IMG/VR virus record: IMGVR_UViG_2565956725_000003
Span: 1-41,483 of that record
Reading direction: 5' to 3' (one strand)
Source of the DNA: a virus
Taxonomy: Duplodnaviria > Heunggongvirae > Uroviricota > Caudoviricetes
Length of the DNA: 41,483 nucleotides
Shown here: piece by piece, positions 3,097 to 41,483 of the stretch
How the letters are laid out: each line of letters opens with the position of its first letter
Position numbering within the stretch: position 1 is the stretch's first letter
The notes under the pieces: model-generated
The model's input: only the letters and a program-made list of their open reading frames with translations
Databases searched by the model: none
What the model was told of the DNA's origin: nothing
Position numbers and translations under genes: made by a program

Positions 3097-3316
3097 CGTT
3101 TATTACGCATAACAATCTCCTTACTATTGAAGATTCACACATAATAAACCATTTAAGGATAATAGTTACCTCAAAACGCTGTATTTCTACCTTCTACGGC
3201 AATGAAAATTTCGTTCAGAAAATGGTCTAGTGTACCTCTCAGTCACAATTAAAGAAGAAAGAAGCCGAACTTACTTCGTAATAAGCAAGCCGGCTACTAA
3301 GATTAATCCTCAATAT

Positions 3317-6073
3317 TTAGCTACTTTCAAGCATTGCAAGACGTGATTCTATTTTTTCGATTCTTCTACGCAAATAAGCTGACTCAAGCCATAAACACTG
3401 GTCAGTACGGATACCCCACCTATTTCCAGCCTTGCAAACCAGAGTTCGCTCTTCTGTTTCGTATTCTTCTTCCATCTCAATTTCGACGCCATCCACAACT
3501 TTAGTGATCATCCTTACCGCCATCACTGGCGCGTATTTATCATCCCATTCATCGTAACAGAGAAGGCCAAATCTGGTTCCATCAATCCCATGCGCGAGGA
3601 AAGTGTCTCTCACTTGTTGTGCTATAACACCAAAATGCCAGCGGGCACCATCTCCCTTTTCCCTGACGGCATCAAGCCAGCGAAAAGCTACAATCCTGAT
3701 ATCTCCCCATGCATCCAGAATTGCATCACCTTCATAACCACGAGACATATACAAGCTGAGCTCACTTGTACTAATCGGTTCACTTTTTTCTCTACCATCT
3801 GATGTGTTTATCGAACCGTTCGCAGAATAAACCTGTGCCCATCTAAATGATGGTGCACCAAGAGATTTGCTGTTATCAATAATTGGTGAAAAATTACCTT
3901 TAATGGCAATATTTCCAGAGTCGCCGAATATATTAATAACTGCAGAGTCATCACCATGGTTTTTTACGCTTAAGTTTCTTGATGAAATATTTATATCTTT
4001 GTTATATCCACTAACATTAATCCATCTTTTACCATCAATGTGATACCCGTAAATATTTCCGTCTGATTGTTCGTCAGGTGACTCTCTAAGAACAATAGCA
4101 TCTGCTCCAGACGACCATTGTATTTTTGTATCTGTAGGCCTCCAGTTCTTTATAATGAACGAACCATCAGTAAACTCCGTTTTTATTTGTCTATTGTCTA
4201 CAAATGCGTCTCTTGGTTTAAACTCACTTGTGTTAACGCTGCTCTGAAGATCAGAAGCAAAAAATCTAAGATTTCCTGTATAACCCTGAGTCTCGGTCTG
4301 GTTATACGCAATCATAATTCCATTTTCAAACTCAGATGATGTTATTTTAACATCACGGCAATCACCAAAAATGCAATTTCCTTTATCAAATGTTGTTTGA
4401 GCTTTGAATTTATCAAACCTTAAATTACGAACAGGGAAACCATCAACCTCTAATGCAAAGGATGCAGGAAGGCCAAAGTATTCTGATGGCTTACCTGATG
4501 TATGATCAAGAGTAGTGGCTACTGTATTCTCAAAAACAGTCCCGCTAAAATTATTACCAATTGACGGAAACCTGATTACACTTATTGTACCTTGTATTTC
4601 AGGAGAAATACCAGATAGTGTGATGTTAGCTCCATCAAATGATGCATCTGAATACGTATATACTGATTCACTGCCAGCAATTTTAAACTGTTTAACTGAA
4701 GTTATTCTCATCGACTTTTTATGTTTAAATGTCACTGAGCTTTCAGTATTACTTACAAGATCAATCTGAGGGCTATTCCTTATCGCGATCCCTGACTGGA
4801 CATAAACGTTATTAAAGTGCGTTTTTTCAGGATTTCCCTTCATTGAAAGGCTCCCGTCATTTTCTGTCAGTAGTAGTCCTTTTACCCTCCAATAGCCGAC
4901 AATCTGTACGTTATCAATAACTGAATCACAGCTATCGTATACATGCAACCCTATATCCCAGTCATCACCCAATGAATAAGAATCAGGGTTATTGTATCCT
5001 TCAATACCATTTTTACTTACCATTATTCTCAGGTTGCGTAACTGTGATGCCCTGTTGATACTAACAGCTACGCTCATGGCTTTTGGTGTAGCAGGAGTAA
5101 CACCTACAGAATCTTCATTTGTAAACTCAGTGAACTTACAAGATATCCCTTCAACAATTTTAACTGGTCTTTCATTAGAGATGTTAAAAAAATATTTGTT
5201 TTTTTCTCCATCACCAGTAAATACAAGATGGGTTCCTTTACTCCAACTTTTTAATAATCTTTCAGGCGCTGGTCTATATGTATCCCAATAATCAATGCCA
5301 TCACCAATTAAAGACACTCCAGGAGGCACATCTATGTTCTTAGAAATCATCCATTTACCTGCAGGTATTCTAACGACACTTGCACCAGAATTTATCGCAT
5401 TAATTAACCATTCAGACGCATCAACTTCAAAATTTAATGCAGCATATCTTTGCTCAAACGGAACAAAATCAAGAGCGTTAACGTTATCCCGCATCTTATC
5501 CTGGAACGTTCGGTATACTGCTCCAGAACCATACTGAATAAACCAACCAAAACCACCAACAACTCCGGCGATTGCAGCATCAACATAATTGCGCATTGAT
5601 CGATTATTTACAGCATCCTGCTCAAGTGATGGATCTGCAAGGTTAGAAATTTTGTTTTGCTTTGCATCGTAATATTTTGCAAGCAAAGATGGTTTCATCA
5701 ATGCACGTCTGAACCATCCAAAACATTGCTGGATCAGCATCGTCAGATAGTCAAAGGCATCTTCATGCACCTCGGGGAAAAATTTTCCCTGATTACGAAG
5801 ATCAGTCTCCTGCACCACATCAAGCACACGATCTATCGTAATTCGCCATCCAGCAGCAAGCGGCGACGGAAGAACAACAGAACCGCCACTATAAGTGCCC
5901 GCCCCTGTTACCGTATAACCGGTATCCAGAACCAATTCTGTTACGTTCCCGTTCAGGTCAGACACCTGAACAACCAGGTCGGATTTTTTGAAAATACGGA
6001 AGGTATACGGAAATGATGTCGTAGCTCCGTTACCTGTGTATTCGTTGTGGTCAACTTCGGTTGAGACCGTCAT
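3317..6073 (-). CDS. tailspike/tail fibre with C-terminal intramolecular chaperone (peptidase S74-like)
   Basis: 918 aa; N-terminus resembles the T7 gp17-type adaptor domain; AT-rich central part; C-terminal roughly 150 aa resembles self-cleaving chaperone domains of endosialidase-type fibres; RBS GGAG. Confidence 0.8.
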   Translation of the reverse strand: MTVSTEVDHNEYTGNGATTSFPYTFRIFKKSDLVVQVSDLNGNVTELVLDTGYTVTGAGTYSGGSVVLPSPLAAGWRITIDRVLDVVQETDLRNQGKFFPEVHEDAFDYLTMLIQQCFGWFRRALMKPSLLAKYYDAKQNKISNLADPSLEQDAVNNRSMRNYVDAAIAGVVGGFGWFIQYGSGAVYRTFQDKMRDNVNALDFVPFEQRYAALNFEVDASEWLINAINSGASVVRIPAGKWMISKNIDVPPGVSLIGDGIDYWDTYRPAPERLLKSWSKGTHLVFTGDGEKNKYFFNISNERPVKIVEGISCKFTEFTNEDSVGVTPATPKAMSVAVSINRASQLRNLRIMVSKNGIEGYNNPDSYSLGDDWDIGLHVYDSCDSVIDNVQIVGYWRVKGLLLTENDGSLSMKGNPEKTHFNNVYVQSGIAIRNSPQIDLVSNTESSVTFKHKKSMRITSVKQFKIAGSESVYTYSDASFDGANITLSGISPEIQGTISVIRFPSIGNNFSGTVFENTVATTLDHTSGKPSEYFGLPASFALEVDGFPVRNLRFDKFKAQTTFDKGNCIFGDCRDVKITSSEFENGIMIAYNQTETQGYTGNLRFFASDLQSSVNTSEFKPRDAFVDNRQIKTEFTDGSFIIKNWRPTDTKIQWSSGADAIVLRESPDEQSDGNIYGYHIDGKRWINVSGYNKDINISSRNLSVKNHGDDSAVINIFGDSGNIAIKGNFSPIIDNSKSLGAPSFRWAQVYSANGSINTSDGREKSEPISTSELSLYMSRGYEGDAILDAWGDIRIVAFRWLDAVREKGDGARWHFGVIAQQVRDTFLAHGIDGTRFGLLCYDEWDDKYAPVMAVRMITKVVDGVEIEMEEEYETEERTLVCKAGNRWGIRTDQCLWLESAYLRRRIEKIESRLAMLESS

Positions 6074-6176: not shown

Positions 6177-6193
6177 ATTACCTTTCGGGTAAT
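6177..6193. promoter_or_regulatory. operator-like 17-bp palindrome ATTACC-N5-GGTAAT (copy 1)
   Basis: ATTACCTTTCGGGTAAT, perfect 6+6 inverted repeat, in the divergent region between the tailspike start and the SOS-box ORF. Confidence 0.6.
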
Positions 6194-6573: not shown

Positions 6574-6665
6574 TTTACATCGCACTCCTCTTGTGCCATA
6601 GTAATCGGGCACTGGCAAAATCCAGTGCCGGGATTGGTCTCCCGGATTACTACAGAGGCACATAT

Positions 6666-6686
6666 GCCGCATAAGCGGTTTTTTTA
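6666..6686 (+). terminator. weak terminator-like hairpin plus T-tract
   Basis: CCGC-ATAA-GCGG followed by TTTTTTT; short stem. Confidence 0.3.
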
Positions 6687-6839
6687 TGTGTAAAGCGCAC
6701 CTATTCTATGGTGGGCTGTGTGGGGGCACCGAAAGGTGCGCCGGGTTCCTTTGTAGCCGGTAAGACCAACTCTGCACAGTTCACCACCATCTGATTGGTC
6801 TCAGCGGTGGTGATTAACCTAACTACAAAGGTGATCGCC

Positions 6840-7532
6840 ATGAATACCAAACCTTCCATCTTTTCCTTTGAGTCATCCTGCCAGATCCGTATGTTCATGA
6901 TTGACGGAGAACCTTGGTTTGTCACCAAAGATGTGTGCAATGCTTTGAATATTGATGTTACACAAGCGAGAAAACTTGATAAAAAAGGCTGGAACAAAAA
7001 GGGGCTGTATTCAATACAGACCCCTGGTGGAATACAAGAACTATCCATCGTTTCAGAATCAGGTCTCTACATCCTTATTCTGCGTTGCAAAGAGGCAATG
7101 ACAGAGGGAACGAGAGCATTCAGATTTCTTGAATGGGTTACAGGTGAGGTTCTTCCTCAGATCCGCCGCACCGGAAGTTACATTAAAAACTCGCTCCCGC
7201 AGGAAGAACGCATAAAGATGGTTGCCGACCAGGTAGCCAACGCCACGGCGTCAGCAGTAATGCAGGCGATGAAGATAGAGAACAAAACCTACAGTGCCCC
7301 GCTGAAGCCCGGCTACCGCAGCCTGATTCACTCGCCGTCTGGTGTTCTCGGCCTGACGGAGAACTCACTGCTGATGAATCTGCTGAACCAGTTACAGGAA
7401 GACGGGCACGACGTATCGGGCGCGGCGGCGGAACTGACCACCATGTTCTGCTACATCGTCGGTGTGAGTAAATGCCTGCGTGATATCCAGACCCACGCGG
7501 AATACATCAACGACAAGGCAGGGGTCTTCTGA
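6840..7532 (+). CDS. Bro-N domain protein (antirepressor-like)
   Basis: N-terminal Bro-N signature (FSFESSCQIRMFMIDGEPWFVTKDVCNALNI ... GLYILILRC ... FLEWVTGEVLPQIRRTGSY); start at ATG 6840 with RBS AAAGGTGA. Confidence 0.85.
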   Translation: MNTKPSIFSFESSCQIRMFMIDGEPWFVTKDVCNALNIDVTQARKLDKKGWNKKGLYSIQTPGGIQELSIVSESGLYILILRCKEAMTEGTRAFRFLEWVTGEVLPQIRRTGSYIKNSLPQEERIKMVADQVANATASAVMQAMKIENKTYSAPLKPGYRSLIHSPSGVLGLTENSLLMNLLNQLQEDGHDVSGAAAELTTMFCYIVGVSKCLRDIQTHAEYINDKAGVF

Positions 7533-20800: not shown

Positions 20801-21238
20801 TTAACCAGTTACTTTTGAGCGGATCGGATACGGCGTATTGGCATCAACATCAAGACTGATACCAGCAGTGAATTCGCCAGCCGTTAGTGGGCCAGTTGCG
20901 ACGGAGTAGTTAACACGCAGATATCGCTGAACACCGGCAGGCACCTTTGCAGAAACAACTCGTTTACCTGCTGTCAGGGCGGTCTTTGCCAGTGCGCCAC
21001 TATCATAAATAGTGGTCCATGAGCTGTTATTTTCACTCGTCTGCAACTGGATGTTTACAGTTGCATCACCGCTTGCCGCGGCGGCTGTGTTAACCAGCGC
21101 CCAAAACTCAAGCTGGTAACCAACGCCGATATCACGACGTTTTCCGTCAATTGGACCGAGATCGATTACGTCAGTAGAAGCCGCGGTATCAGTTACCGCC
21201 TGTGCTTCGGAGAACATCAACAGTTTGTCGGTGATCAT
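20801..21238 (-). CDS. putative capsid decoration/staple protein
   Basis: 145 aa, beta-rich, immediately downstream of the major capsid gene. Confidence 0.45.
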   Translation of the reverse strand: MITDKLLMFSEAQAVTDTAASTDVIDLGPIDGKRRDIGVGYQLEFWALVNTAAAASGDATVNIQLQTSENNSSWTTIYDSGALAKTALTAGKRVVSAKVPAGVQRYLRVNYSVATGPLTAGEFTAGISLDVDANTPYPIRSKVTG

Positions 21239-21289
21239 CTTCTTTCTCCATTAGTGGGTCTGTTACGACCCACAGGTTAATAACAGGCG

Positions 21290-22282
21290 TTACACCACGC
21301 GGGCTTCTGTTTCCAGAAGCGCATCAGTTTCACGGATTGGTACACCACGGAATGAAGTCCACCACTCGCCTTCTGTCTCTTTTACGCTGATAGCCAGAGA
21401 TGTTTTCTCCAGAGACTGCAGATCAAGAGCCTGGCCTACAGTGCGGTTCATGTAGAACACCGGGCGGCCCATGCCACGGTTTGGAATGCGATGTAGTGCT
21501 TTAACCATCAACTTCGCAATATTTGCGGCAGAGGATGGTTCTGAAAGATTGCTGACATCGATGTTTGCAATGCGAACAACATAACGCCAGTCACGCAGAG
21601 CAAGTCCGTTATCCCATTTGTAATGGGTGCGATAGCCTTCGTACTTGCCGCCATTAGCATCTTCCAGTGTCACCTGGCCTTTATCTTCCATCTGGATGCC
21701 AGCCTTCTGCCCTTTCGGGAAGATGCCATGCACGGTGTTTTCGCCCCACACCACTAACCAGATTGAAGTGTTATCTGTACCCGTGCCACCAGCATCAATG
21801 ATGTTCTGAGCATTACCCGCAGACAGGCTGGAATAGCGGGAGGACAGTCCCATAAACTGCTGAGGGTTAACGCTGGAATCACCATAAAACAGCGTCTGCG
21901 CCATCTGCTGATTCATCGCTTCAATAAATGCGCGGTCTTCAGACAGGCGGAATTCGGCGGTATTGCCGTTCAGATCAGCCAGTGACTTATCGACTTCCGC
22001 ATAGGTTTCCAGCATGCCAACGGAATCGGTTACCTGCACTGTGGTTGATTTGCTTGGCTGTACGCCATAGTTCAGCAAACGCCAGGTAGCTGAAGGTAAA
22101 CCAGAACGAATGGTGGTTCGGTGTCCGGTAGGAAGGTTCCCTTCGACAAAAGGCATATCCTGAAGGATCGGGTTAGTTTGACCGAGAAGCTCGATAATCT
22201 TATCGACTTTCCCGTTTGGATCGACGCGCTTACCCCAGTCAGCCAGCGTTAGCGCAGTTAAGCCTTTAACAGCCATTGTCAT
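21290..22282 (-). CDS. major capsid protein
   Basis: 330 aa, immediately after the scaffold gene and followed by a stem-loop. Confidence 0.8.
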   Translation of the reverse strand: MTMAVKGLTALTLADWGKRVDPNGKVDKIIELLGQTNPILQDMPFVEGNLPTGHRTTIRSGLPSATWRLLNYGVQPSKSTTVQVTDSVGMLETYAEVDKSLADLNGNTAEFRLSEDRAFIEAMNQQMAQTLFYGDSSVNPQQFMGLSSRYSSLSAGNAQNIIDAGGTGTDNTSIWLVVWGENTVHGIFPKGQKAGIQMEDKGQVTLEDANGGKYEGYRTHYKWDNGLALRDWRYVVRIANIDVSNLSEPSSAANIAKLMVKALHRIPNRGMGRPVFYMNRTVGQALDLQSLEKTSLAISVKETEGEWWTSFRGVPIRETDALLETEARVV

Positions 22283-22290
22283 TTCCTCTC

Positions 22291-22992
22291 TTATTTGCCA
22301 TAGAGCACTTCGGCCGCACTACGCTGGCCTTCATTACCACCGGTGACCATGCCATCTTCAGACATCGCCTTTCCGATTTTCACGAACGTTTTGACCAGAT
22401 CAGGGTGATTACCCAGCCCGGTGGTGTTCAGATATTCTTTGAGTTCAGGTGTCCCGAACTGGTCAAGCGCACGCTGTGCGGCGCTAAGGTTAGAAATCAA
22501 CTTGTCGCCACCGATTTCTTTGTCGGCTTTTACATCCGCAGCCCACTGCTCGGTTGTTTTCTGCCAGGCTTCTGCCTGGCGCTGCTGAACACCTGCCAGA
22601 ATCTTCGGATAAGCATCAACCAGCTTTTGCGCTTGCTCGTTGGTCAGGTTTAGTTCTCGCGCCACCGGCTCGAATTCCTTCAACGCTTCTGTATCCAGCT
22701 CTACGCCTTCGGCAGCCTGAAACTCGTACTTTTCAGGCGCACCCTCTGGTTTATCGCCGTCCTTTTTTTCATCCTGCTTATCGTTTTCAGGCTTTTTGTC
22801 ATCAGCAGGTTTATCGCCATCAGCAACAGGTTGTGGCTTATCACCTTCCTGTTGTGATGGATCACCAACTGGAGCAGGGTTATCACCTGCAGGCGCTGAC
22901 GGTTCTGACGCAGCCGGAGCTGCTCCACCATCGACTGGTTGCTCATTGCAAAGACGGCGATACAGCAAACGCTCAAATAAATTCATGATCAC
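22291..22992 (-). CDS. scaffolding protein
   Basis: 233 aa, acidic, low-complexity Pro/Asp/Lys-rich N-terminal half, helical C-terminal half; between portal and capsid. Confidence 0.75.
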   Translation of the reverse strand: MIMNLFERLLYRRLCNEQPVDGGAAPAASEPSAPAGDNPAPVGDPSQQEGDKPQPVADGDKPADDKKPENDKQDEKKDGDKPEGAPEKYEFQAAEGVELDTEALKEFEPVARELNLTNEQAQKLVDAYPKILAGVQQRQAEAWQKTTEQWAADVKADKEIGGDKLISNLSAAQRALDQFGTPELKEYLNTTGLGNHPDLVKTFVKIGKAMSEDGMVTGGNEGQRSAAEVLYGK

Positions 22993-23285
22993 TCCTGTTC
23001 ACTGGCCTCTTTGGCCATCTTCAAATACTGTTCAGGGCAATGCGCCATAACGCGCTGAAACAGTTCCAGCGCCAGATTGCGTTGCCCCTCATTAAATGCC
23101 ATTGCCATAGCATCCATCGGAGAGATAGCGGAAAACACCCGGCCTTTCTCCAGCACCGACCAGACAACGCGACGCCCCTGTTCACTGCTCATGACAAAGC
23201 AAATGTCATCAATTTCACGCTGTGCCATGTCACGTTGCTTACGGGCGTTTTCTTCTTTCAGTTGATCGTCTTCGTAATCTGTCAT
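22989..23285 (-). CDS. small head-associated protein, hypothetical
   Basis: 98 aa, translationally coupled between portal and scaffold. Confidence 0.5.
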   Translation of the reverse strand: MTDYEDDQLKEENARKQRDMAQREIDDICFVMSSEQGRRVVWSVLEKGRVFSAISPMDAMAMAFNEGQRNLALELFQRVMAHCPEQYLKMAKEASEQE

Positions 23286-24961
23286 TGTGATTGCCCACCC
23301 TGACCACTAACTGCATTCGCCATAGCTGACAAAACACTCGGATCCGAAGTTTTAGCTTCGCTTAGCGTCTTGGCACCCTGTGCCGCCGCCATCCCCATCG
23401 CCATCATTTGTTGCTGCTGTTGTTGCTGTGCCCGTTGCTGGCGAGCCTGCTCAACCTGTTCCTGCGGAACAATGACGGTTGGAGACACTCCGGACATATC
23501 AGCGAATGCATCGATCGCCTGATCAACGTTGAGTTTGTCGAGAGCTTCTGGTTTCGCTTGCGCAAGTTGACCAATGAAGTTGACCGTAGACGCCAGACTG
23601 GACAGGCCGATAGACTTCTGCGCCTGAGCCATGACGGAAATGTATTCGACCTTCAGGGGCATACCTTCCATTGCGTCAGGCGGTGGCGGCAGCATGTTTT
23701 TACGCACCATCATCGAGAAAGCGCGGTCAATGAGAGGATTAAGACATTCGTCGTTCAGACGCTCCAGAACCGGCCCCAACATCAGAAGTTTTTCTTCTTT
23801 CATTTCGATCACCGCTTCAACAGGCATCGAGCGGGTATTGATGTTCTGCAACATCATGAACAGATCGACAAAGTAGGCGCTGTTAATGATTTGACGGGTG
23901 TCCTGAATGTCTGCCACCAAATCTGCTGTACTGGGGTTAACCAGATAAGCAGGCCTGAAGCCATCCTGACCAGTAATCTGATCGATATACGTGATGTCGC
24001 CAGGAAGAAGGGAGGCGCGCTGATTCTTGAGGGAAGTCGGAGCAACCATCGGCGGATTGGTGGCTTTATCAATCAACTGCGACTTGCGCTTCTGAAGAAG
24101 CTGCAATGCCTTAACAGATCCAAGCGCCAGCATACCCGGGCATGATGATCCATAAACATCTTCGCCGTTAACTTCCCAGCGCGGAGCCATAATTGGAAAC
24201 TCATCGAATCCGGACTCACGCAACAACTTGTCGTTATCGCCACCAACCTCGTAATAAACCGATTTGAATGGCTTGTTCTTGCTATCCAGCTTCGATGTAT
24301 CGCGGTCAATGTTCGGGTAAACCGAATGCATCACTTCAATCCACTTCTCGTAGGTGCCGCTTTCCCACATGCTTTTTACGGATTCGCTGACGTTATTTAG
24401 CCCGAACTCCTGAACAAGCTGACGAACAGTCATAGAGAACTTGCGGAAACAGGTGTCCACACTGCCACGAGGTGAGTTAGCCAGGTAGTAACTGCCTATC
24501 GGGAATGGCATTGTGCGAATGATGTCCTTGTCATCCTCCAGCACCGCCATTGCACCAGTGCTGTATGTGCCGAGGCTTCCGTATAACTGCGGAAGAGACT
24601 GGTAGAGATTCGACTTATTGAACATATCGTTCATGCGGTTCTGCACCGCCTCAAGCCACAACTTAACAGGGCCATAATCCATCATTTCAGGATCTGGCGT
24701 AGCCAGGCGAAACCACGGACGCGCGGGGCTTGTGATGCCTGACATCATGCCGCTGGCGAGAGTGCGCGCCGCCATAGTCCCGGTCGAATCAATAATGCGT
24801 GTATTGCGTCGATCGTTACGGTTGACCTCAGAAGTCAGAAAGCGGGAACCACGCGGGTTGATGTAATCACTCAACTCGCGCCAGTGCGGCTCGAACGACT
24901 GACGCTCGCTTTCAAGTTGTGCGAACTGTTTGTTCAATCGCTCTTTAGTTGTTTCCGCCAT
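23282..24961 (-). CDS. portal (head-to-tail connector) protein
   Basis: 559 aa with poly-Gln/Ala C-terminal tail; RBS GGAG. Confidence 0.8.
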   Translation of the reverse strand: MAETTKERLNKQFAQLESERQSFEPHWRELSDYINPRGSRFLTSEVNRNDRRNTRIIDSTGTMAARTLASGMMSGITSPARPWFRLATPDPEMMDYGPVKLWLEAVQNRMNDMFNKSNLYQSLPQLYGSLGTYSTGAMAVLEDDKDIIRTMPFPIGSYYLANSPRGSVDTCFRKFSMTVRQLVQEFGLNNVSESVKSMWESGTYEKWIEVMHSVYPNIDRDTSKLDSKNKPFKSVYYEVGGDNDKLLRESGFDEFPIMAPRWEVNGEDVYGSSCPGMLALGSVKALQLLQKRKSQLIDKATNPPMVAPTSLKNQRASLLPGDITYIDQITGQDGFRPAYLVNPSTADLVADIQDTRQIINSAYFVDLFMMLQNINTRSMPVEAVIEMKEEKLLMLGPVLERLNDECLNPLIDRAFSMMVRKNMLPPPPDAMEGMPLKVEYISVMAQAQKSIGLSSLASTVNFIGQLAQAKPEALDKLNVDQAIDAFADMSGVSPTVIVPQEQVEQARQQRAQQQQQQQMMAMGMAAAQGAKTLSEAKTSDPSVLSAMANAVSGQGGQSQ

Positions 24962-24975
24962 TTCAATGACTCCGG

Positions 24976-25182
24976 TTACTGACCAAGCAGCGTTTTACCG
25001 CTGGTATTAGCGGTTGATGTGTCGCCCAGAGAACCGGTAAGCAGCGTAGAACTACGACCAGCAGCAGCGCGACGGCGACGAGTTTCTTCGTCGCGGGCAT
25101 CAACAACGGCGGCATCCTGCTCCTGTGGTGCTGCCTGAACTTCTGGTGTTGCAGGCACTGATGGTGAGCTACCCATGCACAT
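24976..25182 (-). CDS. small protein upstream of portal, hypothetical
   Basis: 68 aa; RBS GGAGTCATTGAT-ATG nearly identical to the portal initiation region. Confidence 0.45.
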   Translation of the reverse strand: MCMGSSPSVPATPEVQAAPQEQDAAVVDARDEETRRRRAAAGRSSTLLTGSLGDTSTANTSGKTLLGQ

Positions 25183-25270
25183 ATCAATGACTCCGTACGC
25201 AATTAAATTATTACCAATTTAACCACATATGATTTATTTATCGTAGGTAGTTGACATTTAACGCACAAAT

Positions 25271-25287
25271 TATTACCTTTCAGGTAA
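25271..25287. promoter_or_regulatory. operator-like palindrome (copy 4)
   Basis: ATTACCTTTCAGGTAAC, 15 bp downstream of a TTGACA hexamer (25250-25255), upstream of the tRNA and of the portal operon. Confidence 0.55.
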
Positions 25288-25609
25288 CCAAAGAGTTCAT
25301 TCCGGTTACTAACCTGACTGGCTTGTCGTTAAATTGAACAGGTGTAGTGAGCTTTTATTTTGAGCAGTACGGCGTATGGCACATGCGCCGATAGCGGTCT
25401 GGATACGTTTAAGGGGCACCCTCCCTTGCTCGGGCAAACGAACCAGGTAGCCGGAATGTGCAAGTCGAGCGGTTTTATTCCGCGCACGGGGATTCACCAT
25501 CCCGGCGATTCGGTGTGACGCCTCGGAAGAGACGAGGGTACAACGATGAGAGCATTTATGGAGCCGCGACAAAGTGTGGCGCCTTAACAGGCTAAGTGCT
25601 CTCAGCGTT

Positions 25610-25686
25610 GTGGCATTAGCTCAGTTGGACAGAGCAACCGCCTTCTAAGCGGTTGGTCGCAGGTTCGAATCCTGCATGCCACGCCA
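25610..25686 (+). tRNA. tRNA-Arg (anticodon UCU), phage-encoded argU-like
   Basis: Hand-folded cloverleaf with 7-bp acceptor stem, D and T arms, anticodon loop CTTCTAA, discriminator G and encoded CCA; core resembles argU. Confidence 0.9.
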
Positions 25687-25729
25687 GAATCACGCCTAAG
25701 GACCGTGATGCCAGAAGTTCCAGGTGCTT

Positions 25730-25771
25730 GGCGGTGATGGTTTCCCTTGAGGGACTATCACCGCCCTTTTT
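25730..25771 (+). terminator. rho-independent terminator after the tRNA
   Basis: 9-bp stem GGCGGTGAT/ATCACCGCC followed by CTTTTT. Confidence 0.6.
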
Positions 25772-25849
25772 ACAGCAGGACGCCATTGCGATGACTTCAT
25801 GCTGTAAACCCGTACAGCCACGGAAGGCATAACTCATTGCTTCCAGTTC

Positions 25850-25873
25850 GCCCGGTTCGCCGGGCATTTTTTT
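25850..25873 (+). terminator. second terminator/attenuator hairpin
   Basis: GCCCGG-TTCG-CCGGGC followed by ATTTTTTT, just upstream of the RBS of the 25890 ORF. Confidence 0.55.
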
Positions 25874-25889
25874 AAGGTGAGATTAGACT

Positions 25890-26261
25890 ATGAGTGACAA
25901 AGACATTGAATCTGAAATTCAGGCTAAAGGTTTAGCCGCGCCGCGCGTTACGCCAGACCATATCGAGAGCATTATTGCTCAGGAGGCATATTTCACAGCA
26001 GAAGATGGTGCCTTTGGCGTAGCCATAAAAGCGAAACATACTGGCGGAGAGGTAAACTACCAGCCGCACGAATCACTTTCTCTGCTGACGTTCTGCGTCC
26101 TGGTGCTGCGCAACGGCTTCACCGTCACCGGAGAGAGCGCCTGTGCAAGCCCGGAAAACTTTGATGCAGAAATTGGTCGGAAGATTGCCCGACAGAATGC
26201 TGTAAACAAAATCTGGATGCTTGAAGGTTACTTGCTGAAGCAGAAGTTAAGCGAGCAATAA
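25890..26261 (+). CDS. hypothetical protein (moron with the tRNA)
   Basis: 123 aa, RBS AAGGTGAG; opposite strand to the flanking packaging and head genes; followed by a terminator. Confidence 0.6.
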   Translation: MSDKDIESEIQAKGLAAPRVTPDHIESIIAQEAYFTAEDGAFGVAIKAKHTGGEVNYQPHESLSLLTFCVLVLRNGFTVTGESACASPENFDAEIGRKIARQNAVNKIWMLEGYLLKQKLSEQ

Positions 26262-26275
26262 CACCGTGACATATC

Positions 26276-26310
26276 ACAAACAGCCAGCCTATGAGCTGGC
26301 TTTGTTTTAT
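26276..26310. terminator. bidirectional terminator between the moron and terminase large subunit
   Basis: AGCCAGC-CTATGA-GCTGGCT with a T-tract on the + side and an A-rich tract on the other. Confidence 0.6.
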
Positions 26311-26351
26311 CCTCATCAGAGGATATCAACAACATTATCCCCTCAAGCGGA

Positions 26352-27827
26352 TTAAGCATAGGGATCGTAATCTGTGATGGCCTTGCCTTGCTGGTTCTGC
26401 TGCCCGGGAATTCGCAGACGCTTAGACACAGGGAACGCAAACGTCAGCAGTAGCGCATCGCCTTTACCCGGTGAACGCCCAAGCCGCTCCTTGATATCTT
26501 CCTTCGGTTCGATAACGATTTTACCGTCCACTCGAACTTTGTACTCTGCCGCCGACAGGTCGTCTGCTGTTTCCTGGTCATCCAGCATGCCGCCAAGCCT
26601 CAGCCATGTCTTGCATGAATTGAACATCTCCCCACGCTTGTTGAGCATCTGCGGGTCAGTAGACGCGCCACCGAACGGAACAAGTTGCCATGTACGACCC
26701 CAGCCGTCACCGATTGACTTCAGACCGGTTCCGTAACCGAAGTCGATGAACACCGCGTCAGCCTGATACTGGTCTTCAAAGTCAGCGATACGCTTCGCCA
26801 TAATCAGATCGTCAGTGGTCTTGTTGCCAGTCCATAGCACCTTACTATGCAACCCCTGCCGCAGGTATATCACCGCGTCATCAACGCCTGAATATGCCGG
26901 GTCAACACCGATTATCACCGGAGCATGTGCCACCTGCGCAGCGGTTACCACCCGTTTCATTGCCTCATCAGTAAGACCGGTAGGGATAAACTGCAATTCA
27001 GATGCATCAGGGAATATGCCGCGCACACGGATTTTAACGAAGTCGCTGTCTTCCCCGTAGTCATCAACCCATTTCTGCAACTGCTGTTTGTTAGTACCTT
27101 CCACCGTCCGGCTGTCAATCTGCGCAGTTTTCCAGCGGTGTTTGTATTTGCGGAAACATTCGCGAAAACGCCCGGTATTACGTGTAGGGTTTCCGAACGC
27201 CACCCAGATAATCTCAGTGTCTTCGTCCGTAAGCGCACCCTCAGCAACTTCCCACACCAGATCCGCAATGTTCGACGCTTCATCGAATACCACGATGATG
27301 CGTTTGCGCTCGTTGTGTAGTCCGGCGAATGCCTCAGTGTTGTGCTCAGACCAGGGGATTGCGTCAGCTCGCCACCGCTTGTCGTGCCCAGGATCATTGC
27401 TGTACATCGCGGTAGCGGTACAGGTAAACCAGTCTTTCGTGATAGCAAGGTTCGACCACTTGATAATTTCCGGCCAGGTCTTCGTTCGTAGCTGGTTGTC
27501 GGTGTTGGCGGTCACCACGACCTTACAATCCTCGCAAGTGGACATGCCCCAGTTGATCAACATTGAGATGAATGCTGATTTACCAATACCGTGGCCCGAA
27601 GCACGTGCCAGCATAAGCGGCTGATAGCGCGTCTCTGGATTCTGCAGGTGATCACGTATCTCTCGGAACGCATCAGCCTGCCACTGACGTGGGCCGGTGG
27701 CATGTGCCAGTTCAGTCCCCTCTTCCCCCCAAGGGAACGCATAGAGGACATAGCCAAGCGGATCGTGAGTGAACCCTGCAATATCCTCGATCAACTGCTC
27801 TTCAGGAGATAACGCTGTATCTGTCAC
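26352..27827 (-). CDS. terminase large subunit
   Basis: 491 aa immediately downstream of the small subunit with overlapping stop/start. Confidence 0.85.
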   Translation of the reverse strand: MTDTALSPEEQLIEDIAGFTHDPLGYVLYAFPWGEEGTELAHATGPRQWQADAFREIRDHLQNPETRYQPLMLARASGHGIGKSAFISMLINWGMSTCEDCKVVVTANTDNQLRTKTWPEIIKWSNLAITKDWFTCTATAMYSNDPGHDKRWRADAIPWSEHNTEAFAGLHNERKRIIVVFDEASNIADLVWEVAEGALTDEDTEIIWVAFGNPTRNTGRFRECFRKYKHRWKTAQIDSRTVEGTNKQQLQKWVDDYGEDSDFVKIRVRGIFPDASELQFIPTGLTDEAMKRVVTAAQVAHAPVIIGVDPAYSGVDDAVIYLRQGLHSKVLWTGNKTTDDLIMAKRIADFEDQYQADAVFIDFGYGTGLKSIGDGWGRTWQLVPFGGASTDPQMLNKRGEMFNSCKTWLRLGGMLDDQETADDLSAAEYKVRVDGKIVIEPKEDIKERLGRSPGKGDALLLTFAFPVSKRLRIPGQQNQQGKAITDYDPYA

Positions 27828-28420
27828 TGATTACCATCCTGACGTTCTTTGAGTCGCTTCCTGGCTGCTGCTATGCGATCAGCAATTGTCACATTCACAT
27901 TAACATCCAGACGTTCTTTGAACGCGTTGACATCAACATGCTTACCAATCAGCTCAAGGTTCTTCACCTTGTCAGGCCATTTAATTTTTTTGAGGATTGT
28001 CTCTATCGAATCCTCGTTCATGTTCATGATGGTCGATGACAGATCAAAGCCACTAAGCGTAGTGCGCCAGATTTTCGGCCACTCGCGGATTGGCTTAAGG
28101 CTCCCATCGTCGTTGAGGATGTCGATCACGTCCATCTGGTCGATCTCCACCAGGCGCATGAGAACGTAATCAGCACTGACGCGCATTCGTTTGTTGCGCT
28201 CTTCCATCAGCTCGGCAATCCGTTTTTGAATGCGTTCATCGCGCATCATGACACTGGCTTTAACTGCCGCTGTATTTGGGGAGAATCCTGCGTTAATCGC
28301 TGCCTGAGTCTGGTTTTCAGGCGTTTTGATGTATGACTGGCAATAAGCCTCCTGCATTGCTGTTAGTGGCTTAAATTGCGTTGATTTGCGTTTATAGGTT
28401 TTAGGTTCAGCAGGCATCAT
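27824..28420 (-). CDS. terminase small subunit
   Basis: About 198 aa from ATG 28420/28417; helix-turn-helix-like KPLTAMQEAYCQSYIKTP...TQAAINAGFS; the ORF-track N-terminal extension is rejected. Confidence 0.75.
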   Translation of the reverse strand: MMPAEPKTYKRKSTQFKPLTAMQEAYCQSYIKTPENQTQAAINAGFSPNTAAVKASVMMRDERIQKRIAELMEERNKRMRVSADYVLMRLVEIDQMDVIDILNDDGSLKPIREWPKIWRTTLSGFDLSSTIMNMNEDSIETILKKIKWPDKVKNLELIGKHVDVNAFKERLDVNVNVTIADRIAAARKRLKERQDGNQ

Positions 28421-28436
28421 AACCACCGTGGTAATA

Positions 28437-28453
28437 GTTACCGTTGTGGTAAT
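28437..28453. promoter_or_regulatory. operator-like palindrome (copy 5) just upstream of the terminase small subunit
   Basis: GTTACCGTTGTGGTAAT within a GGTAATAGT direct repeat, 17 bp from the start codon. Confidence 0.55.
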
Positions 28454-28494
28454 AGTAACATGCAAAATAAAGCCGCCATAGTTGGCGGCAGTAT

Positions 28495-28728
28495 TCAAAG
28501 TCCATCAAATTCATCGTAAAAACTCTCGTCAAGATACCCTTCCCATTTACCGCGAATGAAAATTACACCCTCGCCGCAATGGTGATGACTGTCGATAACT
28601 ATATCCCTCCTGGCGCAACCATACTTATGCATGAGAAATTTAACCTCTTTCGGAAAATTTGCTGAGTTATCTCTCATATCTTCAAGGTCGTAGCGTATTT
28701 TTGGCATAACACCTTCGTGACATGTCAC
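28495..28728 (-). CDS. hypothetical protein
   Basis: 77 aa, GTG start overlapping the upstream stop. Confidence 0.45.
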   Translation of the reverse strand: MTCHEGVMPKIRYDLEDMRDNSANFPKEVKFLMHKYGCARRDIVIDSHHHCGEGVIFIRGKWEGYLDESFYDEFDGL

Positions 28729-34522: not shown

Positions 34523-35107
34523 ATGAAAAGTATCCAGGACGTCCGCAGGCAAAATCTCAACGACTTGATCGACCGTGAATTCAATGGTGTTCAGACGCGG
34601 ATGGCAGAAAAACTTGGAACTCAGGCAAATCTGGTAAACCGCTGGGCTCTTGGCAAGAAGGTTATCGGCGACCAGGTTGCACGAAAAATTGAAGCTGCCG
34701 CCAATAAACCCCGTAACTGGCTTGATATTGATCGTTCGCTTTCTCAGGAGGGTTTTCAGCCTGTCGGCCCGAGCGATATAGGTCAGCTGGCGGCTCACAA
34801 CCTGGAACGCTGGATGAGCGAAAGCCGCGACCTTTCAACACAGGGAAAACTTCACCGCGCATCCGGCGTCGCCCAGGTGACAATCAGCCGCCTGTTAAAC
34901 AATGAGGTCAGCGTTTCCATTTCCACCCTGGAGAATGTTGCATCCGCATTCGGGCGTCACGGATATGAACTACTAATTCACCCGCACGACCCTGCGACTA
35001 TCAACTATGACCGCTCGCGCTACGCATTGTTACCCGAAGCCGAGAAAGCAAAGATCGAAAGTTACATTGAATTTGTCATCAACCAGAACGAAAAAAACAA
35101 ACAATAA
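34523..35107 (+). CDS. prophage repressor, dual HTH, no autocleavage domain
   Basis: 194 aa; two HTH-like segments (residues about 10-60 and 95-150); no S24 peptidase motifs; divergent from the cro-like gene; followed by a strong terminator. Confidence 0.7.
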   Translation: MKSIQDVRRQNLNDLIDREFNGVQTRMAEKLGTQANLVNRWALGKKVIGDQVARKIEAAANKPRNWLDIDRSLSQEGFQPVGPSDIGQLAAHNLERWMSESRDLSTQGKLHRASGVAQVTISRLLNNEVSVSISTLENVASAFGRHGYELLIHPHDPATINYDRSRYALLPEAEKAKIESYIEFVINQNEKNKQ

Positions 35108-40232: not shown

Positions 40233-41483
40233 TTATTCCCCCGCCATCCACTTCTCAAACTTCGACGGGGAGAACGGAATCAGATCCGTATGCTCCCCGT
40301 TAATCCAGGAATCAATCATATCGGCCCACTGCTGCAACATGTAGGCGCGCTGTCTGGCGTATTCCGCTTTGTTATATACGGCGCGCACACCTTTCTGCTC
40401 ATGTGCCAGAGCCTTTTCAATCCAGTCTGAAGGATAACCAGCCTCATGCAACAACGTACTGGCTGTACGGCGCATATCGTGTACGGTGAAGCCCTGAATA
40501 TGCTCACCATCTTCATTTATTATTTTCACCGTTCTGTCGATCAGAGAGTTCAGCGCGGCATTAGATAATGGCTTCCGGAAATTGTAACGCCCAGGAACAA
40601 GATATTCACTTCCACCAGCGCACATCTGCAACCCAACCAATATATCCTGTGCCTGTTTAGGCAGGTAAATAACGTGCGCCCGGCTTCCCTTCATGCGGTC
40701 TGAAGGAATTGTCCATGTCCATTTTTTAAAATCTATTTCATCCCACGTTGCATTGGTGAATTCGCCTTTACGAACCATAGTGATAAGCACCAGCTTTAAA
40801 GCCATTTTCATAGTGCCCATAGCACCAATGGCATCCAGCGTGCGGAAGAACAGGCCAATTTCTTCTGGTGTCAGTGTTCGCTCTCGTGGTTTAAATATGG
40901 CGATAGACGAAGGTTTAATGTCAGCCGCAGGATTAAACAAACCATGACCACGGTCATTGGCGTGACGGTATACGCTGCTGATGATCTCCCTGGCCTGTAC
41001 TGCTGTTGCCCGACCACCGCGTTCGACAATCCGGTCACACAAATCACGAACCATCGATGTGGTAATTTCAGCCATCATTTTGTTGCCAAGAACCGGAAGT
41101 ATGTCACGGTCGATCACCGCCTGCTTCATTGCGCGGGTACTGTCAGCCAGGATGACGTGTTTCATATAACTGTCGGTATGTACCGCAAACGTCTCGGCAC
41201 CACGAATCTTTTTGATACCGTCACGTTTAGCCGCAGCCGGCGACTGGCCTGCTTTAAGCAGCTTCTTTGCAGCAATCAGTTCTTCTCGCGCTTCTGCCAG
41301 GCTGATACCGTCACGCCCATACTGCCCGATTACCAGTGTTTCGCGGCGACCGTTGATACGGTAGTCATAGCGAAACGAGACCGTGCCTGACGTAAGCACA
41401 GCTACATACAGCCCGTCACGATCGGAGACCTTATACAGTTTGTCCTGCGGCTTGAGGTTTTTTAATTTTGTATCGGTAAGCAC
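40233..41483 (-). CDS. int: tyrosine integrase (P4/CP4-57-like), 5' end at window edge
   Basis: 416 aa; arm-binding N-terminus LTDTKLKNLKPQDKLYKVSDRDGLYVAV; C-terminal catalytic region with HDMRRT and RAVYNKAEY; first codon at the edge is GTG so the true start may lie just outside. Confidence 0.9.
   Translation of the reverse strand: MLTDTKLKNLKPQDKLYKVSDRDGLYVAVLTSGTVSFRYDYRINGRRETLVIGQYGRDGISLAEAREELIAAKKLLKAGQSPAAAKRDGIKKIRGAETFAVHTDSYMKHVILADSTRAMKQAVIDRDILPVLGNKMMAEITTSMVRDLCDRIVERGGRATAVQAREIISSVYRHANDRGHGLFNPAADIKPSSIAIFKPRERTLTPEEIGLFFRTLDAIGAMGTMKMALKLVLITMVRKGEFTNATWDEIDFKKWTWTIPSDRMKGSRAHVIYLPKQAQDILVGLQMCAGGSEYLVPGRYNFRKPLSNAALNSLIDRTVKIINEDGEHIQGFTVHDMRRTASTLLHEAGYPSDWIEKALAHEQKGVRAVYNKAEYARQRAYMLQQWADMIDSWINGEHTDLIPFSPSKFEKWMAGE

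Follow-up and report, generated by a model that had tools for sequence, protein, structure and literature searches.

A conserved structured leader RNA ahead of a tRNA and Acb4-family cassette in a phiV10-type phage is a candidate put-like antiterminator

In phage lambda the slot that follows the early promoter PL holds nutL/N, and in phages HK022 and HK639 the same slot holds putL. The put elements are RNAs that bind RNA polymerase (RNAP) and make it ignore terminators. In the structure solved by cryo-electron microscopy (cryo-EM; PDB 7XUE), U28 of the CAUG segment of put inserts into a pocket of the β′ zinc-binding domain, and G35 of the A9–G35 platform is essential in put. A 2025 paper on the lambdoid LLS, which has a related yfdP/yfdQ early-left operon, found N to be absent and suggested a put-like mechanism (the LLS sequence itself was not part of our comparisons). 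Here we describe an RNA element that resembles put in position and in part of its structure, found in a 41,483-nucleotide stretch of viral DNA (IMG/VR record IMGVR_UViG_2565956725_000003, positions 1–41,483; hereafter the window). The window phage is a phiV10/epsilon15-type temperate phage (Uetakevirus), and the region of interest shares 98% identity with Escherichia phage phiV10 and other Uetakeviruses (epsilon15 group). The original prediction for this locus, an argU-like tRNA gene and one open reading frame (ORF) lying antisense between the terminase and portal genes, is correct in these and the other features that it observed, yet they are already known from the annotation of relatives: the records of O157 typing phages 9 and 10 and RefSeq E. 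coli genomes list the tRNA-Arg, and the ORF is phiV10p03 in the phiV10 annotation. What it overlooked is that the DNA from 25183 up to the tRNA is not an empty leader but holds a 240-nucleotide (nt) conserved structured RNA.

The roughly 430 nt between the small gene gp3 and the tRNA gene are thus not spacer, and positions 25367–25609 of the + strand encode what we refer to as the leader RNA. To characterize it we aligned 29 diverse copies and scored a structure of six helices, using as controls the same helices with their pairing partners slid by 1–3 columns as well as 500 shuffles. Standard pairs fill 96.8% of the cells, and 11 of the 29 pairs show changes on both sides. The covariation score of the structure was 0.278, compared with at most 0.057 for the slid controls, and was reached by none of the 500 shuffles. 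The core, which spans 148–180 nt across members, consists of invariant blocks (UAUGGCACAUG, AGCGGUC, GGUAGCCGGAAUGUGCAAG, UCACCA, GGCGAU, GGUGUGAC and the loop GAAGAGA) parted by helices that vary in sequence and length. Helix P1 (not to be confused with phage P1) is backed by a GC-to-AU covariation at one pair, and the pseudoknot PK2 by a compensatory change in which the CACC of the P4 loop and the GGUG downstream become AACC and GGUU. The pairing proposed for a further pseudoknot, PK1 (GCACA with UGUGC), is invariant and hence gives no covariation signal, and RNAalifold returned an alternative long-range helix that excludes helix P1. The strand of the leader RNA is + because the G-U pairs in helices P1 and P4 fit that strand only. 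Downstream of the core, the closing helix of a 3′ hairpin domain is, as judged by eye, kept through compensatory changes in the Klebsiella, Enterobacter and ST64B versions; this domain is absent from the copy in phage P1. Because the 3′ domain stops at the 5′ end of the tRNA, cleavage by RNase P would set the 3′ end of the leader. In SPN1S (locus L012, ~1700–1790) and 1720a-02 (L008, ~3190–3250) the insert of this domain contains the T-arm-like stretches GCTGGTTCAATTCCAGAC and GGTCAGTTCGATTCGGAC, and in BUCT554 it contains AGGGTTCGAATCCCT; these T-arm-like stretches may be tRNA fragments or minihelix mimics.

Several other identities for this element were considered and rejected. It does not read as a protein-coding sequence, since its insertions and deletions are not multiples of three, its variable columns show no three-base periodicity and its helices covary (some reading frame does stay open across the GC-rich core). 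The word GGGGATTCAC had suggested a repeat of the enterobacterial repetitive intergenic consensus or repetitive extragenic palindrome (ERIC/REP) type; the element, in fact, is single-copy in each phage and keeps to fixed contexts, and Stenotrophomonas phages have it too. Neither model nor sequence supports a transfer-messenger RNA, RNase P RNA, hepatitis delta virus (HDV)-like RNA or glmS-like RNA. Within 25150–25900 the tRNA was the only feature to match Rfam, where the leader had no match at E ≤ 10, and a scan of the element in the mEp460, P1, Stenotrophomonas and SPN1S loci likewise returned no matches. This silence is uninformative with respect to put, because put itself is absent from Rfam. 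A full-text literature search with the invariant sequences returned no paper, which leaves room for an earlier notice of the element. The leader RNA is therefore real, structured and conserved and, as far as could be checked, undescribed.

The leader RNA is present in 1,840 of 5,426 complete E. coli genomes, where no annotated feature matches it, except that in phiV10-type copies the end of the query overlaps the tRNA-Arg. Positions 25369–25612 are 80–83% identical to unannotated, tRNA-free DNA of the lambdoid phages mEp460, cdtI, 2H10, Stx2c phages, Stx2a_1447 and 1720a-02, and positions 25369–25531 are ~80% identical to P1 and P7; parts are 70–75% identical in Klebsiella, Salmonella and Enterobacter Uetakeviruses and in Stenotrophomonas phages. 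The element also occurs in P1-like plasmids and in Citrobacter, Kosakonia, Klebsiella, Kluyvera and Phytobacter genomes. A scan of genome contigs with a 16-mer gave mostly chance matches; 13 of the first 100 loci were real, all of them in Enterobacteriaceae. When we searched from TerL for Uetakeviruses that lack the element, only relatives 99–100% identical were recovered, and all of those with a locatable TerL–gp3 interval carry it.

A survey of 135 loci that contain an invariant 19-mer, mostly IMG/VR viral contigs, placed the element mainly in three contexts. In Uetakeviruses the order is a divergent gp3/portal operon, operator and promoter, the RNA, an optional tRNA-Arg, terminators t1 and t2, a variable cargo gene and a convergent TerL gene. 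In lambdoid phages (mEp460, cdtI, 2H10, Stx2a_1447, 1720a-02 and an IMG/VR contig, L074) the order is cI or another helix-turn-helix (HTH) repressor gene, its terminator, operators and PL, the RNA and then the early-left operon, with the RNA beginning ~40 nt past the predicted transcription start and the operon running from yfdP, yfdQ and yfdR onward to xis and int. The lambdoid leader RNA thus occupies the nutL/putL slot, and no gene annotated as N was found between the RNA and xis/int in these carriers. In P1-like phages it lies in the ban operon, which is controlled by C1, 15 nt after trnI and ~100 nt before ban, and there the RNA follows a tRNA, where in the window it precedes one (ARAGORN calls trnI a tRNA-Met(CAT), L006 2911–2986, and the P1 record has a lysidine-type tRNA-Ile2). 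The element directly adjoins a tRNA in two of the three contexts.

The lambdoid Salmonella phage ST64B, which has a matching left operon and no annotated N, gave no match in a search with our covariance model, R1. An unannotated gap of 815 nt (L350 27238–28052, − strand) separates its cI (sb38) from the yfdP-like gene sb37. Besides the cI terminator, the operators and PL, this gap holds a GC-rich stretch of ~330 nt that includes a GTAGCCAGTGCAAGCG motif, the same 3′ hairpin domain as in the leader, here ending in CGTTGTGGTGAATGCG, and a terminator; it may contain a diverged relative of the leader RNA that escapes the model.

The resemblance of the leader RNA to put is partial. In helix P1 the leader reads ACGGCG...ACAUGCGUCG, and stem I of HK022 putL reads AACGGCG...ACCAUGCGUCGG; the two have in common a 5-base-pair stem, CGGCG/CGUCG, with a G-U at the third pair in both. 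The base of stem I in put (C10–G34 to G14–C30, with G12–U32, and the bulged C26–G29 segment with U28) has its counterpart in helix P1, which is CGGCG/CG(U/C)CG and in which an invariant CAUG precedes the 3′ side. Further words follow in matching order in the put sequence of HK639, namely GGAAGAG, GGCAATTATGG (10 of 11 bases shared) and TGGCTAA (the HK639 record also lists, besides a putL-like RNA, an ‘M3-like RNA’ after cII; L266 37910–37969). Like the leader RNA, put lies just 3′ of a repressor-controlled early promoter (PL) and ahead of terminators, in phages without N, and we found the same succession of predicted early promoter, RNA and terminator in mEp460, L074, SPN1S and the window. Lambda presents a similar arrangement of cI, OL/PL, antitermination determinant, terminator and early-left operon, which confers promoter-specific licensing, except that the carriers of the leader have no annotated N and the determinant would be RNA alone. 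The two RNAs nevertheless differ in architecture: put is ~70 nt long, with two stems and a triplex, whereas the leader has a core of ~175 nt and a 70-nt 3′ domain, with five or more helices, one pseudoknot supported by covariation and a second, putative one. Moreover, unlike put, the leader is present in single copy in each phage and is also found outside the lambdoids (P1, Uetakevirus). We have not filed the leader as a member of the put family because the essential A9–G35 platform is not conserved.

In the window, the leader RNA is preceded by a candidate promoter and an operator. The TTGACA hexamer and the operator-like palindrome of the original prediction are both present, and the arrangement TTGACA, 17 nt, TACCTT recurs identically with its operator in Salmonella phage SPN1S (L012 1439–1467). 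Allowing up to two mismatches, the window contains 15 copies of the palindrome TTACCTnnnAGGTAA compared with 0.96 expected by chance, and these copies lie in clusters to either side of a double-HTH repressor gene (34523–35107) and at other regulatory gaps. Three copies (10723, 15743 and 28438), which lie within structural genes or TerS, could be weak sites or due to chance. The exact palindrome is also found at the equivalent position in epsilon15, 91 nt past the gp3 start (L135 1283–1297), where the record labels it a repressor binding site. Its recurrence and this label identify 25273–25287 as the operator of the phage repressor, and the spread of copies points to a scattered-operator regulon, as for C1 of P1. 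The likeness to P1 goes further, in that the P1 element sits in an operon under C1 acting at a distant operator and the window phage has, along with its scattered operators, a P1-type C4 RNA: another of the operator-bearing gaps is the region that holds the C4 antisense RNA, isrK and a Bro-N antirepressor. There isrK (74.7 bits) and the C4 antisense RNA (78.6 bits), at 6609–6791 (+), lie directly upstream of the Bro-N ORF (6795–7532, +) among operators at 6178, 6558 and 7599, which amounts to a P1/P7-type immI-like module in a podovirus; mEp460 has a matching C4/isrK pair (L007 706–894). Because the operator covers the −10 element, expression of the downstream unit would be expected upon induction or infection and not in lysogens, and from its sequence the unit is probably off in lysogens and on early after derepression or infection. 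The benefit to the lysogen that had been proposed for the tRNA is consequently not supported, given an operator over the −10 element, an arrangement kept in SPN1S and a site kept in epsilon15. In the near-identical phage ZX5, overexpression of the repressor lowered endolysin and holin transcripts by ~99.97–99.99%.

Downstream of the leader RNA and the tRNA, the two terminators of the original prediction are indeed present as + strand hairpins with T tails, t1 being kept in relatives with or without the tRNA. The region contains 6 terminator-like sites where 1.9 would be expected. The T tract of t2 ends ~16 nt before the start codon of the cargo ORF, whose ribosome-binding site follows t2 directly; the ORF is reachable by read-through only, because no space is left for a promoter between t2 and that ribosome-binding site. 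More broadly, at least one intrinsic terminator separates the RNA from the first ORF of at least 60 amino acids (aa) in 65 of 107 dereplicated loci, among them mEp460, in which a terminator of −20.7 kcal/mol stands between the RNA and the first gene. A history of joint loss is suggested by epsilon15 (L135 1505–1576) and locus L145 (~6970–7180), the only informative cases, in which helix P1 and the first part of P2 run straight into the 3′ arm of t1: a single deletion took out the tRNA along with the remainder of the RNA and the 5′ arm of t1 and left t2 and an Acb4-like ORF in place. Loss of the element and the t1 arm in a single event is suggestive.

The 123-aa cargo ORF is real and belongs, by profile and by predicted fold, to the Acb4 family. 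Its product matches Pfam PF13876 over the full profile, and also matches SPO1 Acb4 (PDB 9E4W) by sequence (E = 0.007). In addition, the top 13 Foldseek matches in the PDB to its AlphaFold model (pLDDT score of 82.9) are all chains of 9E4W, with probability 1.00 and template-modeling (TM) scores of 0.60–0.69 on the target. The likeness to SPO1 Acb4 thus consists of PF13876 membership and predicted fold; the cargo protein is only 22% identical to it and has an N-terminal extension of ~25 residues. PF13876 is the Acb4 family of phage sponges that bind cyclic dinucleotides and thereby counter the cyclic-oligonucleotide-based antiphage signaling system (CBASS), and all eight Acb4 homologs tested bind 3′3′-cyclic GMP-AMP (PMC11722364); we infer that the cargo protein is a cyclic-dinucleotide sponge of this kind. 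In Klebsiella phage ST512-KPC3phi13.3 the slot that follows the leader RNA, tRNA-Arg and terminators is filled instead by a Tad2-like (PF11195) protein (L011 2011–2532). With Acb4, Tad2-like and other ORFs in one slot, the island would be an early counter-defence cassette with exchangeable cargo. Other ORFs seen in the cargo slot, unrelated and unassigned (L005, 93 aa; L010, 143 aa; L012, 64 aa; L013, a 263-aa coiled coil) are candidate new anti-defence genes.

Table 1 Features of the locus and related sites (window coordinates)
Feature	Position	Strand	Basis or remark
Leader RNA core	25367–25540	+	Covariance model R1, 143.6 bits, E = 8.6e-41
Helix P1	25370–25376/25384–25390	+	
Helix P2, encloses a variable branch	25399–25402/25443–25446	+	
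Near-invariant block GGTAGCCGGAATGTGCAAG	25446–25464	+	
Variable hairpin	~25468–25484	+	
Helix P4	25489–25492/25500–25503	+	
Helix P5, loop GAAGAGA	25521–25525/25533–25537	+	
Pseudoknot PK2	25495–25498 with 25512–25515	+	Supported by covariation
Putative pseudoknot PK1	25379–25383 with 25457–25461	+	Invariant
Leader 3′ hairpin domain, closing helix CAACGAUGAGAGCA/UGCUCUCAGCGUUG, variable insert	25541–25609	+	Minimum free energy folds
tRNA-Arg(UCU), argU-like, CCA encoded	25610–25686	+	ARAGORN (TCT); Rfam RF00005, 73.3 bits (gathering score 29)
Candidate early promoter: −35 TTGACA (25251–25256), 17-nt spacer, weak −10 TACCTT (25274–25279)	25251–25279	+	Read from the sequence
Phage repressor operator TTACCTTTCAGGTAA, overlaps −10	25273–25287	Both	Repeated site and epsilon15 annotation
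Starts of operator copies	2949, 6178, 6558, 7599, 10723, 15743, 25273, 28438, 32104, 32166, 34244, 34405, 34453, 35165, 35227		
Terminator t1: 15-pair hairpin (25730–25765), ~−24 kcal/mol, then CTTTTT	25730–25773	+	Terminator scan; kept in relatives with or without tRNA
Terminator t2: hairpin (25850–25865) GCCCGGTTCGCCGGGC and ATTTTTTT	25850–25873	+	Terminator scan; rho-independent terminator in the epsilon15 record
Cargo gene, 123 aa, PF13876 (N4 Gp49/Sf6 gp66)	25890–26261	+	Pfam 121.3 bits (cut-off 27), profile 1–82 of 82
Bidirectional terminator-like hairpin in the gap between cargo gene and convergent TerL	26282–26301	Both	Terminator scan; terminator in the phiV10 record
TerL	26352–27827	−	Flanking gene
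TerS	27824–28498	−	PF03592
gp3 (small gene)	24976–25182	−	
Portal	23282–24961	−	PF12236

The tRNA that follows the leader is the sole tRNA that ARAGORN finds in the whole window. It is ~86% identical to host argU, with five base pairs that differ and are all compensated (acceptor pairs 2–71, 4–69 and 6–67 and anticodon-stem pairs 29–41 and 30–40), as the original prediction had it; the anticodon loop, D stem and T arm are those of argU, and the D loop differs at one base. The phage tRNA keeps A20, C35 and U36, which are identity elements for arginyl-tRNA synthetase. tRNA-Arg(UCU) genes are carried by many phages (argN/argO of Stx phages, T4-like phages and cyanophages), as rare-codon tRNAs like this one, and they are annotated in close relatives; here the gene lies within a terminator-bounded cassette behind a structured leader and is optional among relatives. 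Indeed, it is a dispensable part of the cassette, in that relatives retain the RNA, the terminators and the cargo gene without it; it is absent in BUCT554, PAT1 and two Klebsiella elements, in which the RNA and terminators are kept. Over 55 greedily chosen ORFs of the window, AGA accounts for 8.1 and AGG for 5.5 per 1,000 codons, the former several-fold above the roughly 2 per 1,000 of E. coli K-12. The AGA codons are concentrated in the tailspike and tail genes, by far the densest user being a tailspike-like protein of 918 aa with a Peptidase_S74 chaperone domain (3317–6073, −; 20 AGA and 10 AGG), and the genes for head and packaging that surround the tRNA (20801–28498) have none. The proposal that the tRNA supplies codons for late genes is therefore only half right, because it fits the tail genes and not those for head and packaging; judged from codon use, a supply of this kind is plausible.

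The reading that we favor, tentatively and with confidence just short of even, takes the leader RNA for a put-like processive antiterminator, acting in cis to license an insulated early counter-defence cassette. According to this reading, 25251–26301 would be one + strand transcription unit, antisense within the late packaging and head genes, which a repressor bound to the operator over the −10 element would keep silent in lysogens and which would fire early after induction or infection. The transcript would begin with the ~240-nt pseudoknotted leader, which would fold as it emerges, stay on the transcribing RNAP and render it resistant to termination, as the put RNAs of HK022 do. RNAP would then cross the untranslated tRNA segment, t1 and t2, and the cargo gene would be reached only by transcripts from the controlled promoter. 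The tRNA-Arg(UCU) would be cut out by RNase P and 3′ processing and would decode AGA, a codon in heavy use in the tail and tailspike genes, and the Acb4-family protein would soak up the cyclic-dinucleotide alarm signals of CBASS.

Several observations weigh against this reading. Antitermination is deduced from position and from a partial resemblance, the put platform is missing from the leader (the base after the 3′ strand of helix P1 is A, U, C or G depending on the member, and the base before its 5′ strand is not always A), and a search of HK022 and HK639 with R1 gave no match. The + strand promoter has a weak −10 element and falls below the threshold of a consensus scan, which found nothing above threshold at the locus on either strand. 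No terminator precedes the first ORF in 42 of the 107 loci. In P1 the element lies in the interior of an operon, at a distance of 2.3 kb from the annotated promoter, and no terminator was found between it and ban. In addition, epsilon15 and L145 keep t2 and the ORF without most of the leader. The unusually long stem of t1 may resist antitermination, with the result that the RNA–tRNA unit might simply end there; long-stem terminators are reported to resist processive antitermination in another system (PMC10325885). A terminator-proof polymerase would also threaten antisense entry into TerL past the modest hairpin at 26282–26301. Finally, the first left ORF of the lambdoid carriers (yfdP-like, with no Pfam match) could be an unrecognized protein antiterminator.

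The main rival to the antitermination reading, which we regard as unlikely but as deserving serious weight, is that the leader is a stable RNA acting early and in trans, released when RNase P cleaves the tRNA at its 5′ end (in P1, by 3′ processing of the tRNA), and that the terminators just end an RNA gene. Such an RNA might act as a decoy for, or inhibit, a host defence or host factor, or it might regulate the lysis–lysogeny circuit. It would account for the complex fold with pseudoknots and invariant single-stranded blocks, for the tRNA that abuts the element directly in two of the three contexts, for the strong terminator soon after the element (the long stem of t1 would stop transcription efficiently) and for neighbors that are counter-defence cargo, Acb4 or Tad2-like. 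However, wherever the flanks can be identified, the element forms the 5′ end, on the same strand, of an operon that needs to be expressed; in some loci, such as L074, ~20 nt that hold no terminator part it from the ribosome-binding site of the next gene; the Uetakevirus cargo ORF starts too soon after t2 to have its own promoter; and no complementarity target or partner protein was identified. It is a good deal less probable that the leader is a riboswitch-like sensor, in which binding of a small molecule, ion or host factor would decide passage of the downstream terminator and so tie lytic development to host physiology. Invariant junction and loop nucleotides among variable helices are what riboswitch aptamers display, a 5′ leader position ahead of a terminator would suit a sensor, and the alternative pairing found by RNAalifold could be a switch. 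But the terminators are 100–300 nt away, behind the 3′ domain or a whole tRNA, no overlap of aptamer and terminator arms was seen, Rfam holds no related riboswitch, and the downstream genes, whose cargo varies widely, are not consistently related to any ligand.

Other explanations center on the tRNA. That the unit is a plain codon-supplementation moron delivering tRNA-Arg(UCU), with spacer upstream and an unrelated passenger ORF, agrees with the intact identity elements, with the frequencies of AGA and AGG, including the 20 AGA codons of the tailspike gene, and with the many phages that carry this tRNA. We consider it improbable: the supposed spacer is conserved more widely than the tRNA, being tRNA-free in lambdoids, several Uetakeviruses and Stenotrophomonas phages, and it shows structure-preserving covariation, and the head and packaging genes have no AGA. 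The stem-altered tRNA might instead be counter-defence cargo itself, replacing or shielding the argU tRNA from a tRNA-cleaving defence or toxin, an idea that is compatible with antitermination by the leader. Phage tRNAs that evade anticodon nucleases are documented, in T5 against PARIS and in mycobacteriophages; here the tRNA would share a transcript with a sponge gene (Acb4 or Tad2-like), in line with the anti-defence theme of the cassette, and all five pairs that differ from argU lie in the acceptor and anticodon stems, the loops being identical. On the other hand, no defence aimed specifically at tRNA-Arg(UCU) is known to us, the anticodon loop, which is the usual nuclease determinant, is unchanged, and the enrichment of AGA in the tail genes is a simpler reason for the tRNA. 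A counter-defence role of the tRNA is therefore possible but unsupported, and we give it little credence.

The strands of the flanking genes bear out the reported placement of the tRNA, terminators and ORF: 25251–26301 is a + strand island between TerL and gp3, and all flanking genes are on the − strand. The original prediction also held that the portal operon needs its own promoter. By eye we noted a weak − strand candidate for gp3/portal, TTGTGC, 17 nt, TACGAT (25239–25267, −), that is below the scan threshold and interleaves with the + strand promoter beside the operator, such that both promoters would exclude each other; read-through from TerL may reach the portal operon, since neither t1 nor t2 is a terminator on the − strand. 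Several hypothetical-protein calls antisense to the tRNA or the leader RNA are probably spurious, in the window (25616–25867, −, and 25309–25572, −) as well as mEp460 gp37 (L007 2943–3311, −), calls in PhiR63_1 (L003 2943–3152, −) and BUCT709 (L004 2823–3113, −), and phiV10 p04. The attachment (att) core of phiV10/ZX5, ATTGAGTGGGAATGATT, is present in single copy (1163–1179, −), an integrase ORF (40233–41483, −) reaches the end of the window and an ORF for a TraT-like glycine-zipper lipoprotein (1–516, +) begins with base 1. These features make the window look like a phage genome that is permuted or has been excised, and not like a prophage with both junctions.

The tRNA and the ORF by themselves are routine annotation, and it is the leader RNA that is the object of interest: a complex, conserved RNA that sits unannotated in the textbook phages P1, Stx2 phages and phiV10 and in a third of complete E. 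coli genomes, and whose position in lambdoids is exactly that of the early antitermination determinant. A wider proposal, which we hold to be somewhat less likely than not, is that the leader founds a large new class of RNA-only processive antiterminators, pseudoknotted relatives or analogs of put that reprogram E. coli RNAP; it would be the early antitermination device so far missing from the many lambdoids without an annotated N (including Stx2-converting phages), and it would operate as well in P1 and epsilon15-like phages, in which it would gate insulated early counter-defence cassettes. Were the leader an antiterminator, it would be a second, structurally different RNA that reprograms RNAP as well as a portable part for insulated gene expression, and it would explain how the early-left operon is expressed in lambdoids without an annotated N, which the 2025 paper left open; the leader makes early antitermination in these phages directly testable. 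For temperate phages more generally, the locus suggests that early counter-defence genes (Acb4 or Tad2-like) may be hidden within late operons behind terminators, and this layout would be a useful search image for new anti-defence genes.

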